From Armatimonadota bacterium (lineage in GTDB: Bacteria > Armatimonadota > SYMT01), in the NCBI GenBank assembly GCA_046292385.1, contig JBKBRF010000085.1:1-10736 (forward strand): 10,736 nucleotides of DNA, given 5' to 3'. Below, one piece after another: positions 2,352 through 9,204 of the stretch. The translations under genes were made by a program, and so were the position numbers. The notes under the pieces are model-generated. The model had not been told where the DNA came from and did not search any database. It was given only the letters and a program-made list of their open reading frames with translations. Positions within the stretch are counted from its first letter, which is position 1, and the number at the start of each line of letters is the position of its first letter.

Positions 2352-3002
2352 TCAGGGGGTCGGCGCCACGAATCCGGCCATCACCACGTAGTGGCAGCCG
2401 CTGCCGCCCAGGACGAAGCAGTGCCAGAGGTCGTGCGCGCCGAAGCGGCCCGGCCAGAGCCGCGGGCGTTCCGTGGCGAAGACGATCGCGCCGACGCTGT
2501 ACAGGAGCCCGCCCAGCACCAGCCAGAGCAGTCCGGCCGGGGGGACCGCCTGCACGAGGGGCTGCACCGCCACCACGCAGAGCCATCCCATCACCAGGTA
2601 GAGCAGGAGGCTCACGTAGTGCGGGGCTCCGCGCCAGGCGACGCGGAGGGTGATCCCCACCAGCGCCAGGCCCCAGACCACGCCGAGCAGGCTCCAGCCC
2701 CACGGACCGCGCAGGGAGACCAGGCAGAGCGGCGTGTAGGTGCCGGCGATCAGGAGGTAGATCCCGATCTGGTCCAGCATGTGGAGCTGTCCCACGCGGC
2801 GGGGGCTCACCGGCAGCAGGTGGTAGAGCGCGCTGGCGAGGTAGAGCAGGACCAGGCTGCCGCCGTAGACTGCAAATCCGGTCAGGTGCCACGGCTTTCC
2901 GGGCGAAAGGCTGAGCAGCGCTACCAGGCCTACCACCGACAGACCCGCGCCTCCCAGGTGGGAAAGCCCGCTCACCGGCTCCCGAAGATTCCATCGCCGC
3001 AT
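2352..3002 (-). CDS. Hemolysin III family (PAQR/TrhA) membrane protein, 216 aa
   Basis: Motifs EPVSGLSH, SALYH, LDQIGIYLLIAGTYTP, HDLWHCFV; about 7 hydrophobic segments; AAGGA upstream of ATG. Confidence 0.95.
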   Translation of the reverse strand: MRRWNLREPVSGLSHLGGAGLSVVGLVALLSLSPGKPWHLTGFAVYGGSLVLLYLASALYHLLPVSPRRVGQLHMLDQIGIYLLIAGTYTPLCLVSLRGPWGWSLLGVVWGLALVGITLRVAWRGAPHYVSLLLYLVMGWLCVVAVQPLVQAVPPAGLLWLVLGGLLYSVGAIVFATERPRLWPGRFGAHDLWHCFVLGGSGCHYVVMAGFVAPTP

Positions 3003-3026
3003 GCTTGGTCCTTACCTCAATCCCTG

Positions 3027-3055
3027 CAGGTTCCAGGTTACCAGGTTTCCAGGTT
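3027..3055. repeat. Short degenerate tandem repeat (caggtt core, 4 copies)
   Basis: caggttc-caggttac-caggtttc-caggtt followed by ccgaacc. Confidence 0.6.
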
Positions 3056-3124
3056 CCGAACCCGCTCCCCGCGAGGATGCTGCTCTAACCGGCGGCGTTC
3101 GGCCGCGATACAGTTTAGCGACCT

Positions 3125-3307
3125 ATGGACGCTCCGGAATGTGAAATCTGTGGCCTGGCGATGCTCCGGCGCGTCAGTGGCGGTAAGTTCTGGTGCGCCG
3201 GTTGTGGGCACCTGCAGAGCTGACACGACTGCGGTCTCCGGTCGGAGGCCGAGCTCCCGCCTCCGGCGCCTCCGGCGGCAACCCATCCCCCAGACTGCCA
3301 ATCCTAG
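3125..3307 (+). CDS. Cys-rich zinc-finger microprotein, putative selenoprotein (60 aa with Sec at codon 33; 32 aa if TGA is a stop)
   Basis: Manual translation MDAPECEICGLAMLRRVSGGKFWCAGCGHLQS(TGA 3221-3223)HDCGLRSEAELPPPAPPAATHPPDCQS*(TAG 3305-3307); two CxxCG knuckles plus UxxC; lies in the otherwise empty gap before dprA. Confidence 0.7.
3221..3256 (+). promoter_or_regulatory. Candidate bacterial SECIS element
   Basis: 8-bp stem cggtctcc (3232-3239) / ggaggccg (3244-3251), one G-U pair, GGUC loop starting 16 nt after the UGA. Confidence 0.6.
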
Positions 3308-3407
3308 CGGACCGCGCCGGCTGGGGACCGGAAGGGATGATGGGCCGGACCGCCGAACCGGCATCCGCGTCTCATTCTATTCTTCCCCCTCTCTGCCCCG
3401 CCGCCGT

Positions 3408-4508
3408 ATGGACGACCTCCGGCTCTGGATCCGCCTGACGAAGACCGGCGCCTCCGCGCGGCGGCTCAATACTCTGCTTGCGCACTTCGGCTCCCCGGAC
3501 GCGATCTTCGGAACGAGCGCGGCGAGCCTCTCCACCGCGCTCCGCTGCTCCGTCTCCGTGGCGGAGAAGCTGCTCGATCCGCTCTACGCCGCCACCGAGC
3601 GCGACCTGGAGCTGATGGAGCGCCTGAACACGAAGCTGGTCACCCGGAAAGATCCGGCCTATCCGGCGCTGCTCGCGCAGATCCCGGACCCGCCCCCCGC
3701 CATCTACGTGCGTGGGACGCTCCGCCCGAGCGACTGCAAAGCGGTGGGGATCGTGGGGAGCCGCCGGGCGAGCGACTACGGGCGCCGGATCGCGGACAAG
3801 CTGGCGATGGAGCTGGCGCAGGCGGGCTACACGGTCGTGAGCGGGCTGGCGCGAGGCATCGATACCTCGGTCCACCAGGGCGCCCTGCGGGCAGGAGGTC
3901 GAACCCTCGCCTGCCTCGGGTGCGGCGTCGACGTCGTCTATCCGCCGGAGAACCGGCGGCTGGCGCAGTCGGTCTCGGAGAGCGGCGCGCTGGTTTCCGA
4001 GTACCCGATGATGGCGCCGCCGGACGCCTGGCACTTTCCCAGCCGGAACCGGATCATCAGCGGCCTCTCGCTCGGGGTGGTCGTGCTGGAAGCGCCGGCC
4101 GGCAGCGGCGCCCTGATCACCGCCGAGTGCGCGGTGGATCAGAACCGGGAAGTGTTCGCCATCCCCGGCAACGTCGACAACTTCCGCAACCAGGGGGCGC
4201 ACGCGCTGCTCCGGGACGGGGCGGCGCTGGTGGAGAGCGTGCAGGACATCCTGGACGTGCTGGAGAGCCGCGAGACGCAGCCGCGTCTCGATCTCGGCCT
4301 GGAAGAGCCGGCGGCCCCGGCCCCGCCGCAGCTCACCCCGGAGGAGTCGGCGCTGCTGGCGCTCCTGACGGAGGACCCGCGTCCGGTCGACGACCTGATC
4401 CTGGAGTCGAGCATGCCGGCGGGACAGGTAAATGCCGGGCTGCTTATGCTAGAGATGAAGGGCTGCGCGCGCCGGCTCCCCGGCAACGCCTTCGTGCGCC
4501 TCAGTTAG
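3408..4508 (+). CDS. dprA: DNA-processing protein DprA (Smf), 366 aa
   Basis: YPALLAQIPDPP, AVGIVGSRRASDYG, VVSGLARGIDT, FPSRNRIISGLS, SGALITA, REVFAIPG and C-terminal winged helix LLMLEMKG; true start ATG 3408 rather than 2343. Confidence 0.97.
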   Translation: MDDLRLWIRLTKTGASARRLNTLLAHFGSPDAIFGTSAASLSTALRCSVSVAEKLLDPLYAATERDLELMERLNTKLVTRKDPAYPALLAQIPDPPPAIYVRGTLRPSDCKAVGIVGSRRASDYGRRIADKLAMELAQAGYTVVSGLARGIDTSVHQGALRAGGRTLACLGCGVDVVYPPENRRLAQSVSESGALVSEYPMMAPPDAWHFPSRNRIISGLSLGVVVLEAPAGSGALITAECAVDQNREVFAIPGNVDNFRNQGAHALLRDGAALVESVQDILDVLESRETQPRLDLGLEEPAAPAPPQLTPEESALLALLTEDPRPVDDLILESSMPAGQVNAGLLMLEMKGCARRLPGNAFVRLS

Positions 4509-6487: not shown

Positions 6488-6922
6488 GTGAGCCAGGCGG
6501 TGGAAGAGTTGACTGCCCCGGTGGAAGGGGATGGCGGTGTGCTGGTGATCCGCGGCGGTGGGGGACACCGCCAGTGGAACAACATCCGGTATCGCACCGG
6601 CATGTCCGGCAAGAACGTCGGCGCGAAGGCGCTCTCGATGAACGTGGCGACGATCCCGCCCGGCGGGGTGGCGTACGCGCACATCCACGTCGACTTCGAA
6701 GTGATGCTCTACATCCTGGAAGGCCGCGTGCGCCACGAATACGGCCCCGGCCTGAAGCAGGTGGTGGAGAACGAGGCAGGCGACTTCATCTTCATCGAGC
6801 CGGGCGTCCCGCACGAGGTGTTCAACGTGAGCGACACGGAGCCGGTCGTGGCGGTAGTCGCCCGCTCCAGCGCGGACGAGTGGGACAACATCATCCCCTA
6901 CGACCGGAATGCAGAGGCCTGA
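6488..6922 (+). CDS. Cupin domain protein (RmlC-like), 144 aa
   Basis: IPPGGVAYAHIH...E and GDFIFIEPGVPHEVFN cupin motifs; GTG start with strong SD ggaaggagg. Confidence 0.92.
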   Translation: MSQAVEELTAPVEGDGGVLVIRGGGGHRQWNNIRYRTGMSGKNVGAKALSMNVATIPPGGVAYAHIHVDFEVMLYILEGRVRHEYGPGLKQVVENEAGDFIFIEPGVPHEVFNVSDTEPVVAVVARSSADEWDNIIPYDRNAEA

Positions 6923-6932
6923 GCGGCGCGTG

Positions 6933-7166
6933 TCCGAACGAACGCGAAGGCGCGAAGGTCACGCGAAGGACGCGAAGGACGCGAAGGACGGCTGAGACAG
7001 CTGAAAGGCCGGGTTGAGTTCGCCCGCCCGCGAGTAAACTCGGGCCTACATAGAGCAAAGCCCGCCTGCGCGGGCTGTCGAACCCCGTGCTCGGAGCGCC
7101 TCGTCCGTCCCCATCAGGTTCCCTTCGCGTTCTTCGCTATCTTCGCGCCTTCGCGTTCGGTTCGGA
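6933..7166. repeat. Inverted arrays of cgcgaagg-type 8-9-mers between convergent genes, enclosing a REP
   Basis: cgaacgcgaaggcgcgaag (6939-6957) is the perfect reverse complement of 7141-7159; further units at 6961-6990 and 7122-7140. Confidence 0.8.
7026..7076. repeat. REP-like repeat, GTAG type, copy 2
   Basis: Minus strand reads agcccgcgcaggcgggct-ttgctctat-GTAG-gcccgagtttactcgcgggc; matches 129-159. Confidence 0.8.
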
Positions 7167-7167
7167 A

Positions 7168-7440
7168 TCACTCGGCCGGGATGTGCGGCACCTCCTCGTG
7201 GTGCCGCAGCGCCGGCTCGCCGGTGGCGCTGGCCGCCTCGCGGACGGCGCGGTCCGGGATGACGCGGTCGGACGCGCCGCCGACGGGGATGCCGCCGGTG
7301 GGCGCTTCTCCGGAGCTGGTCATGATCCGGTCCGGTTCCCGCGGGTGATAGAGGTTCCCACCCTCCGGAAGGATCTCCGGGGTGTGGTCCTCTGACTCAC
7401 CCGAGGCCTCGATCAGCTCTGCGTGGGTAGGCTCTTCCAT
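7168..7440 (-). CDS. Small acidic, probably disordered hypothetical protein, 90 aa
   Basis: MEEPTHAELIEASGESEDH...HHEEVPHIPAE; AGGAG SD 5 nt before ATG 7440; the only credible part of ORF 7168..8529. Confidence 0.7.
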   Translation of the reverse strand: MEEPTHAELIEASGESEDHTPEILPEGGNLYHPREPDRIMTSSGEAPTGGIPVGGASDRVIPDRAVREAASATGEPALRHHEEVPHIPAE

Positions 7441-7590
7441 GCTCGCTCCTCGCTCCGCCTTCTGCTGGGTTTCACCCGGGTCGCGAGCGGCTGAAACGCG
7501 GGCGTCGCTTGCCTCCGCGGCCCGAGGCTGGTATGACTGTTCTGGCCCGGCCCCACCCGTGCGGACTGCCTCTCTCCGTTTGATCGCCCC

Positions 7591-9204
7591 ATGCACATCC
7601 CCGATGGTTTCCTGAGTGTCCCGGTTGCCGCGAGTACCGGCGTGATCTCCGCCGGCGTGGTCGGCACGGCGCTGCGGCGCGTGCGGCCGGAGGCGGAGCC
7701 GGAGCTGGCGGCGCGGATGGGGGTGATGGCCGCCTACGTCTTCGCGGCGCAGATGGTCAACTTCCCGGTGGCGGCGGGCACCTCCGGACACCTGCTCGGC
7801 GCCACGCTGGCGGCAATCGCGCTGGGGCCGCACGCGGCGACGGTGGTGATGGCGGCAGTCTTCCTGATCCAGACCTTCTTCTTCCTCGACGGCGGGCACA
7901 CGGCGCTCGGCGCCAACGTGCTGAACATGGGGATCGCCGGCACCTACGGCGGCTATGCCGTCTACCGCTCGATTGCGGGCGCCGCGCCCACGCCGCGCCG
8001 CAGCCTCTGGGCCACGGGGGCCGCCGCCTGGTTCTCCGTCATGCTGGGCGCGGTGCTCACCGCCGCGCAGCTTGCGCTCTCCGGGACGATTGCCGGCGGG
8101 CTGGTCTTTCCGGCGATGGTCGGGGTCCACGCCCTGATCGGGGCGGGGGAGGCGGCGATTACGGTGGCGGCGGTGGCGCTGCTCTGGCGGGTGCGCCCCG
8201 ACCTGCTGACCGGCCGCGCGGAGAGCGGTGAGCGGCGCACGGGCTGGACCTGGGTCGCCGTCGGCCTGGCGCTGGTAGCGGTGCTGGCGCCGTTTGCGTC
8301 GTCGTCTCCGGACGGGCTGGAGTGGGTGGCGGGACGCCTCGGGTTCGAGGAGCACGCGCGGGACCCGGGCCTGCCGGGGCCGTTCCCGGACTACTCGCTG
8401 CCGGGGACGGAGGCGGGCTGGGTGCCGGCGCTGGTGAGCGTGCTGGGGGCAGTGATCATGTTCGCCGCCCTCGCGCCGCTGGCCGTGCTGGCGCGGGGAT
8501 CGGTCGGCGGACGCGCCACGCCGGCACACGCGGCGCTCGATCCGCGCGTGAAGCTGCTCGGGACGCTGGGGCTCGTCTTCACGGCGGTCCTGCTTCCCGC
8601 CGGGCAGGCGGGCAAGCTGTGGCTGCTGCTGGCGCTGGCGCTCGGCTGGGTGACGCTCTCCCGGGTGCCCGCCCGGTGGCTGCTGGGGCGCGCGCTGTTG
8701 CTGCTCCCGTTCGTCGGGCTTGCCGCGCTCTCCGCCCCGCAGCTACGCGAGGCGGGAGGTCCGGGACTCTCCTGGTATGGGCTGCTCTTCCTGAAGGCAG
8801 GGGTCTCGCTGGCAGCGACCGCGGCGTTCGCGGCGACCACCTCCGAGCCACAGGCGCTGGCGGCGATGGGCTCCCTCGGGCTGCCGCGCGGCCTCAGCCA
8901 CACCATCGCGCTGGCACTGCGCTACCTGCGGGTGATGGGGGAGGAAGCGGGGCGGATGCTGCAGGCCCGCGCCTGCCGCGGCGGCGGCGCCACGCTGGCG
9001 CTGCGGACGCAGTCGACCGGCGGGATGGTCGGCTCGCTCTTTCTCCGGAGCTGGGAGCGCTCCGACCGGGTCTCCAGCGCGATGGTGGCTCGCGGCTTTC
9101 GCGGCGACCTGATCCCGTTCGCGCTGGCGCGGCCGGGACTGGCCGACTATGGATTCCTGATCGGGCTGGGTTGCTTCTTGATGGGAGTGTGGGTATGGCG
9201 GTAG
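7591..9204 (+). CDS. Fused Ni/Co ECF transporter permease: NikM/CbiM + PDGLE (NikN) + NikQ/CbiQ, 537 aa
   Basis: N-terminal MHIPDGFL, FAAQMVNFPV, GTSGHLLG; ASSSPDGLE (P at residue 240) and PFPDY; LDPRVKL at residue 316, LRYL, ARA and AMVARGF T-component motifs. Confidence 0.93.
   Translation: MHIPDGFLSVPVAASTGVISAGVVGTALRRVRPEAEPELAARMGVMAAYVFAAQMVNFPVAAGTSGHLLGATLAAIALGPHAATVVMAAVFLIQTFFFLDGGHTALGANVLNMGIAGTYGGYAVYRSIAGAAPTPRRSLWATGAAAWFSVMLGAVLTAAQLALSGTIAGGLVFPAMVGVHALIGAGEAAITVAAVALLWRVRPDLLTGRAESGERRTGWTWVAVGLALVAVLAPFASSSPDGLEWVAGRLGFEEHARDPGLPGPFPDYSLPGTEAGWVPALVSVLGAVIMFAALAPLAVLARGSVGGRATPAHAALDPRVKLLGTLGLVFTAVLLPAGQAGKLWLLLALALGWVTLSRVPARWLLGRALLLLPFVGLAALSAPQLREAGGPGLSWYGLLFLKAGVSLAATAAFAATTSEPQALAAMGSLGLPRGLSHTIALALRYLRVMGEEAGRMLQARACRGGGATLALRTQSTGGMVGSLFLRSWERSDRVSSAMVARGFRGDLIPFALARPGLADYGFLIGLGCFLMGVWVWR

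Follow-up and report, generated by a model that had tools for sequence, protein, structure and literature searches.

A candidate selenoprotein gene encoding a zinc-ribbon microprotein with a UxxC motif in an Armatimonadota bacterium

The stretch of DNA considered here (the window) is a contig of 10,736 nucleotides, JBKBRF010000085.1 of GenBank assembly GCA_046292385.1, from an Armatimonadota bacterium. Judged from sequence comparison, positions 3125-3307 of the plus strand very probably form a small selenoprotein gene, in which an in-frame TGA after a predicted zinc ribbon codes for selenocysteine (Sec, U). We put the probability of this reading at roughly 0.85. It is based on the Sec machinery of the genome, the conservation of the UGA in homologs, codon-periodic conservation after the UGA, a hairpin of the selenocysteine insertion sequence (SECIS) type, and homologs that carry Cys instead of Sec.

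The candidate gene comprises 60 codons (the ribbon, the TGA, and a short extension) and ends in TAG. When the sequence is read directly, ATG 3125 starts MDAPECEICGLAMLRRVSGGKFWCAGCGHLQS, which makes up codons 1 to 32 (3125..3220) and carries the knuckles C6-x2-C9 and C24-x2-C27 of the ribbon. The TGA at 3221-3223, residue 33, comes next and is followed by HDCGLRSEAELPPPAPPAATHPPDCQS and by the stop codon TAG at 3305-3307. The extension begins with nine conserved codons, H-D-C-G-L-R-S-E-A (3224..3250), which together with U33 make the motif U-H-D-C. From 3251, the unconserved tail ELPPPAPPAATHPPDCQS leads to the TAG (3251..3307); all these parts lie on the plus strand. The listing of open reading frames (ORFs; minimum length, 30 amino acids [aa]) gives only a 32-aa ORF at 3125..3223. 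A preliminary description of the window had noted this arrangement, with a frame that stays open through HDCG to the TAG beyond an ORF track ending at 32 aa, and the sequence is exactly so. Positions 3103-3285 are identical (0 differences) in contigs X2, X3, and X8, which come from three other sequencing studies, and the TGA is thus not an assembly error.

When 401 genomes of the phylum were searched in six frames, three proved to be real carriers of the gene, namely the window genome (G000), G005, and G003, all at E<1e-17 and all from one GTDB family. At E<=0.1, 167 of the 401 genomes were matched; all but those three were rejected as generic ribbons with E>=0.001, many of them being C-termini of the ribonucleotide reductase (RNR) NrdJ. 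A collection of species genomes yielded the same two relatives (L064, titled Armatimonadota, and L063, titled Actinomycetota) and one chance match. The L063 record (SYKE01000302.1) matches G003, which belongs to the same GTDB family as the window genome and G005, and its title may be a mislabel. Five additional loci were obtained from a metagenome collection (L066, L067, L068, L070, and L071), after the removal of a duplicate of L063 (L069), two duplicates of the chance match (L072 and L073), and noise (L074-L076). With the window, L064, and L063, this made eight distinct DNA homologs. Protein identity to the window over 42 residues is 73-79% among them, and an in-frame start codon is present in all eight (ATG in seven and GTG in one). 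The gene downstream varies by locus (dprA, a tetratricopeptide repeat protein, or an aminotransferase) and lies on the opposite strand in L066 and L067. Because the downstream gene differs among the loci, the hairpin and the sequence after the TGA belong to the small gene and not to its neighbor.

The chance match is an ORF of 35 aa in a Candidatus Binatus metagenome-assembled genome (L065:2306-2413; the same in L072 and L073), which contains CGACGHLQSCHDC and has a Cys where the family has Sec. It was rejected. At its end the ORF reads ...SCGACGHLQSCHDCNC, matching the Sec region of the family in 11 of 13 residues but using other codons. Neither the first knuckle nor the RRVSGGKFW block is present, and the ORF overlaps an opposite-strand gene at the 5' end of that gene. 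No homolog of this ORF was found in 60 other genomes of its family. The resemblance is probably due to chance, with a match probability roughly estimated at ~1e-3.

The Sec codon is TGA in each of the eight DNA homologs and never TAA or TAG. The codons after it read CAC GAY TGY GGN/GCT CTY/ATC CGG/CCG TCS GAR/GAT/GGG GCS, which gives HDCG[L/I][R/P]S[E/D/G]A. Over these nine codons, the numbers of variable columns at codon positions 1, 2, and 3 are 1, 3, and 7 of 9. The same pattern is seen over the 27 codons before the TGA, where 6, 6, and 23 of 27 columns vary, while in codons 10-18 after the TGA every column is variable (9/9/9). The 8-nucleotide (nt) unpaired spacer between the TGA and the hairpin (CAC GAY TGY) changes at third positions only. 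Such frame-periodic variation points to translation beyond the TGA, as an element acting only as RNA would not yield it.

Among the alternatives, the one that survives best is that the gene simply stops at the TGA. Its product would then be a 32-residue ribbon microprotein, the hairpin would be an RNA element such as a terminator, an mRNA stabilizer, or a protein-binding site, and "HDCG" would be a by-product of RNA conservation. TGA is indeed the commonest stop codon of the window genome, where it ends 1472 of 3160 long ORFs. However, the variable sites beyond the TGA are distributed according to the reading frame even in the unpaired spacer, which a hairpin would not constrain, and the codon stayed TGA in all eight homologs while nearby synonymous sites changed freely. 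Stop codons elsewhere vary; for example, the NrdJ genes of the same phylum end variously in TAA, TAG, or TGA. Since the TGA, the next nine codons, and the hairpin locus are kept in eight of eight homologs while other stops vary, the pattern at the TGA goes beyond chance.

A pair of Sec and Cys forms with conserved flanks is a standard comparative criterion for selenoproteins. A search for Cys at position 33, with U replaced by C, had been suggested in the preliminary description, and it was successful. When 1.84 billion representative proteins were searched with a profile of the eight sequences (U written as C), 14 matches were obtained at E<=1e-3. Three of them have Cys at the UGA column and read on, seven stop right at the Ser before it, and four are repeat artifacts. 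The Cys forms are P0009 (61 aa; E 4.8e-8), which reads ...CLDCGHLPS-C-ADGDCGPPPLPKKEKPCGR and has ADGDCG after the Cys; P0012 (119 aa; E 2.8e-6), which reads ...CLGCGYIPS-C-SDGDCGLVRAPPPKGKS and has SDGDCG after the Cys; and P0014 (206 aa; E 4.2e-6), which reads ...ACGCLDS-C-HDCGSAPP.... All three thus reach a DCG or HDCG after the Cys, which speaks against a gene ending at this column. The word-index search and the profile search together gave 11 database proteins that stop at the Ser before the TGA column. That gene callers ended 11 proteins here is what a true stop would produce; the ribbon part, codons 1-32, is kept in these 11 as well as in the eight DNA homologs. Database entries of the family are 29-73 residues long and are named "hypothetical protein," "ribosomal protein L37AE/L43A" (one member, from JGI), or "transposase." No more Cys forms came from a second profile search, and no longer or fused forms were found, the latter being weak evidence.

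The nine conserved codons contain the SECIS-like hairpin (3232..3251). Its 8-bp stem is formed by the 5' arm CGGTCTCC (3232-3239) and the 3' arm GGAGGCCG (3244-3251), its loop is GGUC (GGTC at 3240-3243), the distance from the UGA to the loop is 16 nt, and the folding energy is about -15 kcal/mol. The hairpin resembles a bacterial SECIS of the Escherichia coli fdhF type in that it lies within the coding sequence right after the UGA and has a small loop starting with G on a G+C-rich stem. The loop of the fdhF SECIS is also GGUC. It differs in that its spacing is at the minimum of the range (16 nt) and in that the stem is not in the same register in all eight homologs. In PMC13188914, the bacterial SECIS consensus is given as a loop of 3-9 nt, a stem of 4-16 bp, a G in the first two loop positions, a distance of 16-37 nt from the UGA, and a minimum free energy of <=-7.5 kcal/mol. 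The hairpin agrees with every item of the consensus as given there.

A minimum-energy hairpin is present at the same place in seven of the eight homologs, with the loop CGUC in one and a register shifted by one base in two. In L063, the minimum-energy fold differs, and the stem forms there only with a bulged U, as judged by eye. With the structure held fixed, 81% of the cells pair across the homologs. Hairpins with 7-8-bp G+C-rich stems also follow seven confirmed Sec codons of the window genome, with the loops GGUC, AGUU, GUC, GGC, GUU, GUU, and GUG and at 17-33 nt from the UGA (counted by hand from the folds). The identical GGUC loop is found behind the Sec codon of a CMD-like gene (L098) in the same genome. 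A terminator was considered and rejected, with no T run 3' of the stem and no terminator-like site in 2900-3500; the missing T run likewise disfavors a gene that stops at the TGA with a terminator behind it. A dispersed repeat was also rejected, the hairpin occurring once in the genome. The alternative of a true stop does gain from a genuine double stop, TGA TAG at G000:C80:14383 on the plus strand, which is also followed by a hairpin with a GGUC loop, GCCGGGCCCCC-GGTC-GGGGGCCGG.

The window genome (7.04 Mb in 91 contigs; 68.9% G+C) possesses the machinery for Sec insertion. The genes selA (577.9 bits), selB (367.5 bits), and selD and tRNA-Sec (66.6 bits) were all detected above the curated cut-offs, and selD itself has one in-frame TGA (VKCGG-U-ASK). 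In the GTDB family, selB is present in all three carrier genomes and in two of four noncarriers; among the eight loci, the check for the Sec trait covered those of the three carrier genomes. Across the window genome, 60 in-frame TGA candidates have coding-type G+C content at third codon positions (GC3) on both sides. Eight of the 60 have a Pfam domain that extends across the TGA; four of these are AhpC/TSA-redoxin proteins, two are CMD/AhpD-like, one is a rhodanese, and one is an NMT1_2 binding protein. For the rhodanese, the TGA-spanning domain is deduced from the active-site context. The genome thus probably has at least eight further selenoprotein genes besides the small gene and selD. The scan needed at least 30 codons before the TGA, and N-terminal Sec codons, as in selD, escape it. 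None of the six molybdopterin enzymes of the window genome has an in-frame stop.

The eight probable selenoprotein loci of the window genome are L092 (C2:119071-120168), L098 (C5:193743-194351), L099 (C5:150081-151106), L103 (C6:130668-131882), L115 and L116 (C14:76271-78673), L120 (C17:7063-8289), and L129 (C23:68363-69382). Their motifs are CMD/AhpD-like CxxU in two, TlpA/AhpC-TSA-like UxxC in four, and PVT-U-HLTCP of an NMT1_2 substrate-binding protein in one, and one is the rhodanese.

The preliminary description had proposed a UxxC selenoprotein, and this idea is supported. As evidence to the contrary it had named homologs ending in TAA or TAG at this codon, a lack of conservation past the TGA, and a genome without selA, selB, selC, and selD. 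None of these was encountered: the codon is TGA in eight of eight homologs, nine codons beyond it are conserved with the frame-dependent variation given above, and selA, selB, selD, and tRNA-Sec are present.

Several observations weigh against a selenoprotein. Beyond the nine conserved codons, the homologs are unrelated, with 14-30 further open codons and TAG, TGA, or TAA as the stop. The GC3 of the tail is 0.67, lower than the 0.84 of the upstream ORF, and is not coding-like. The drop in GC3 and the divergence of the sequence give no sign of selection on the tail, and the protein would bear 14-30 residues that are effectively random, which is unusual. An unconserved tail of low GC3 would also be expected if translation ended at the TGA. 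For the selenoprotein, the tail is probably tolerated rather than needed. As for the hairpin, its 16-nt spacing is at the lower edge of the 16-37 nt range given in PMC13188914. Its covariation is thin, with one double change from C-G to A-U, in the closely related L070 and L071, and an observed score that is reached by 20 of 500 shuffles. The folding-energy z-scores (-0.15 to -2.27) are unremarkable at 69% G+C, and neither the z-scores nor the covariation is significant alone. In addition, the Cys forms are all metagenomic and known from protein sequence alone, and P0014 is irregular in that the third zinc Cys is absent. The family has few members, all of which come from a single lineage or from metagenomes. 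No RNA sequencing runs containing the locus are listed.

When both sides are considered, a gene that stops at the TGA is improbable. A second alternative, which we also regard as quite improbable, accepts the recoding and takes it to be inefficient. The UGA and the SECIS would then serve mainly as a selenium-dependent switch, with the 32-residue ribbon as the usual product and the Sec form made when selenium is plentiful, resulting in two products or in selenium sensing. In bacteria, Sec insertion has to compete with release factor 2, and an unconstrained tail would suit a minor product, as would a spacing at the lower limit for a SECIS. However, H, D, C, and G after the Sec are under constraint at the amino acid level and are kept in the Cys forms, so that the extended product is the one under selection. 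Moreover, the downstream gene is not conserved, and there is nothing obvious to regulate. Finally, a frame that is open by chance in GC-rich intergenic DNA and encodes nothing can be dismissed, for although the ORF is very short, no clear Shine-Dalgarno sequence precedes ATG 3125, and the ORF listing shows many spurious ORFs overlapping the region, this is already contradicted by the comparative data, i.e., 73-79% protein identity over eight loci in different neighborhoods, 23 of 27 third positions variable, an in-frame start codon in every homolog, and significant matches in two protein libraries.

With the TGA read as Sec, the gene product can be compared with known proteins. None of the Pfam and NCBIfam models reaches its cut-off on the small protein. 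The AlphaFold2 (AF2) model has a mean pLDDT of 79.5, with 81-92 in 10-residue blocks over residues 1-30 and 65 and 50 in the tail, and contains three short strands. The ribosomal protein eL43 (L37Ae) gave the best match of the profile to PDB sequences (E 1.1e-6), the two having C-x2-CG-x3-[LV]RR[VI]S-x-G-x-W-x-C-x2-CG in common. It also accounted for all top-ranked Foldseek matches, with a root mean square deviation (rmsd) of about 1.1-1.3 A over 28-30 residues at an E of ~0.09, which is not significant. However, eL43 is an archaeal and eukaryotic ribosomal protein of 73-99 residues without the [U/C]-x-x-C extension, and it is not known from bacteria. The TIGR00280 model reached 13.9 bits (E 0.05, with the L064 homolog only) against a cut-off of 95.8, and the ribbon alone is alike.

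The weak NCBIfam matches fall on the last 30 residues of the B12-dependent ribonucleotide reductase. The window genome's own NrdJ ends EDAPPCSECGMIMVRAGACYRCDNCGATSGCG, and BLASTP of the small protein against this tail gave 13/32 identities (E 9e-7 for the pair). When the family was aligned by hhalign with 11 NrdJ tails, a probability of 92.4% and an E of 5e-7 were obtained, and U33 fell on the last Cys. In PMC5704485 (Loderer et al. 2017), which deals with NrdJd of S. nassauensis, Cys-945 is proposed to be part of a redox-active pair by which electrons reach the active site, and a four-Cys zinc site holds it. The same paper proposes electron shuttling on a flexible C-terminal end as the function of this Cys-rich finger (CRD) and reports that the physiological reductant is neither thioredoxin nor glutaredoxin.

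The small protein and the NrdJ CRD have in common two CxxC ribbon knuckles followed by CG-x4-[Cys/Sec], and Sec33 aligns with the Cys-945 described there. The small protein differs in that it is free-standing and not fused to the RNR, in that C36 follows the Sec to give UxxC, and in that the linker between the knuckles has 14 residues against 9-10 in the CRD. The six-Cys array that marks the C-terminus of the RNR, C-x2-C-x9/10-C-x2-C-x2-C-x5-C, is absent, while the CG-x4-[C/U] spacing is kept. Two further points tell against the comparison. The partner Cys of the redox pair in NrdJd, Cys-933, has no counterpart in the small protein, and the likeness rests partly on a generic zinc-ribbon pattern, eL43 scoring at least as well. 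A role as replacement for a missing NrdJ finger was considered and rejected, as NrdJ of G000, G005, and G001 retains its own finger. By analogy, the small protein may work like the NrdJ finger, without being filed as a member of that group.

Under the selenoprotein reading, the following mechanism can be proposed. Residues 1-32 would form a four-Cys zinc ribbon, with zinc presumably bound by C6, C9, C24, and C27. The UGA at 3221-3223 would be recoded to Sec by SelB and Sec-tRNA(Sec), recruited by the hairpin in the next nine codons, and translation would go on through H-D-C-G-L-R-S-E-A and the unconstrained tail to the TAG at 3305. The ribbon may present a flexible U33-x-x-C36 motif that alternates between the selenol/thiol and selenenylsulfide states. 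In that case, the protein would be a redox shuttle of very small size, working much as the Cys-rich finger at the C-terminus of class II RNR does. We propose the shuttle function tentatively, at somewhat less than even odds; the main alternative function is metal binding by U-H-D-C. A more specific proposal, that the protein corresponds to a separate copy, equipped with selenium, of the finger with which class II RNRs shuttle electrons at their C-terminus, is unlikely. Such a "selenoredoxin," built on a zinc ribbon and not on a thioredoxin fold, would reduce NrdJ in trans or other disulfide-cycling enzymes. If this were true, it would be among the smallest redox selenoproteins and would represent a new fold class for Sec catalysis.

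The preliminary description had suspected an unannotated and perhaps undescribed family, and this has held up so far, the family having no Pfam or NCBIfam model. Table 1 of the 2026 review PMC13188914 gives 119 families and subfamilies of prokaryotic selenoproteins, including the families of Haft and Tolstoy (2025), and the small protein fits none of them. No description of such a family was found in full-text searches of the literature, the family table S2 of BSepDB lying outside the comparison. The words "zinc," "ribonucleotide," and "Armatimonad" have 0 occurrences in the main texts of BSepDB (PMC13326102) and deep-Sep (PMC12013277).

By description, the nearest family in Table 1 of the review is NF041197 (CxxC_Se_CxxC; OS_HP3 or hypothetical protein DW), which is another bacterial selenoprotein of very small size that has two CxxC motifs (PMC13188914). 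In NF041197, however, the Sec is placed between these two motifs, as RxU or GxU. Its model (cut-off, 40 bits) gave no match to the protein at E<=1, and none of its nine weak six-frame matches in the genome (E<=10) is at C85:3125-3307. The FmdB family (TIGR02605, UxxU) also has a zinc ribbon with a Sec form among the predicted selenoproteins (PMC13188914). In FmdB, Sec residues replace the cysteines of the zinc knuckle, whereas the small protein keeps its four knuckle Cys residues and has the Sec as an extra residue after the ribbon. No TIGR02605 match was obtained at E<=1, and the Zn_ribbon_8 model PF09723 matched the tail of one homolog at E 0.031, below its cut-off. Most known selenoproteins have thioredoxin-like folds (PMC13188914), and a zinc ribbon with an extra Sec is therefore an unusual scaffold. 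The small gene is rated as a new family within the bacterial UxxC selenoproteins.

The small gene sits in a gap of 405 bp between a HlyIII-family gene (2352-3002, minus strand) and dprA (3408-4508, plus strand; ATG 3408). Upstream of it, at window positions 3036-3068, CAGGTTCCAGGTTACCAGGTTTCCAGGTTCCGAA forms one arm of a dispersed repeat. The genome contains 232 clusters with at least three CAGGTT within 40 nt. The clusters are made up of tandem 7-8-nt units; many of them finish with CCGAA, and many are arranged as inverted pairs with 25-50 nt between the two. Examples are C2:138462-138542, C3:78602-78696, and C11:88728-88748, and one copy lies upstream of selD/selA. The CAGGTT repeats look like a family of intergenic palindromes of the repetitive extragenic palindrome (REP) or miniature inverted-repeat transposable element (MITE) type. 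A selenium-regulon motif, shared upstream of the small gene and selD, was considered and rejected, as the repeat is genome-wide with its 232 clusters. At window positions 7054-7077, the Rfam model CRISPR-DR28 scored 36.3 against a gathering score of 35; no direct repeats of >=18 nt were found in 6600-7700, and the match is probably spurious.

Bacterial selenoproteins are routinely truncated by gene callers, and the family described here would add to them a ribbon microprotein that has UxxC near its C-terminus. Because it resembles the redox tail of class II RNR, it leads to a testable idea on how such tails get reduced. With a small gene, natural Cys variants, and a compact SECIS, the family may also be a useful system for studying Sec recoding in a phylum that has received little attention.

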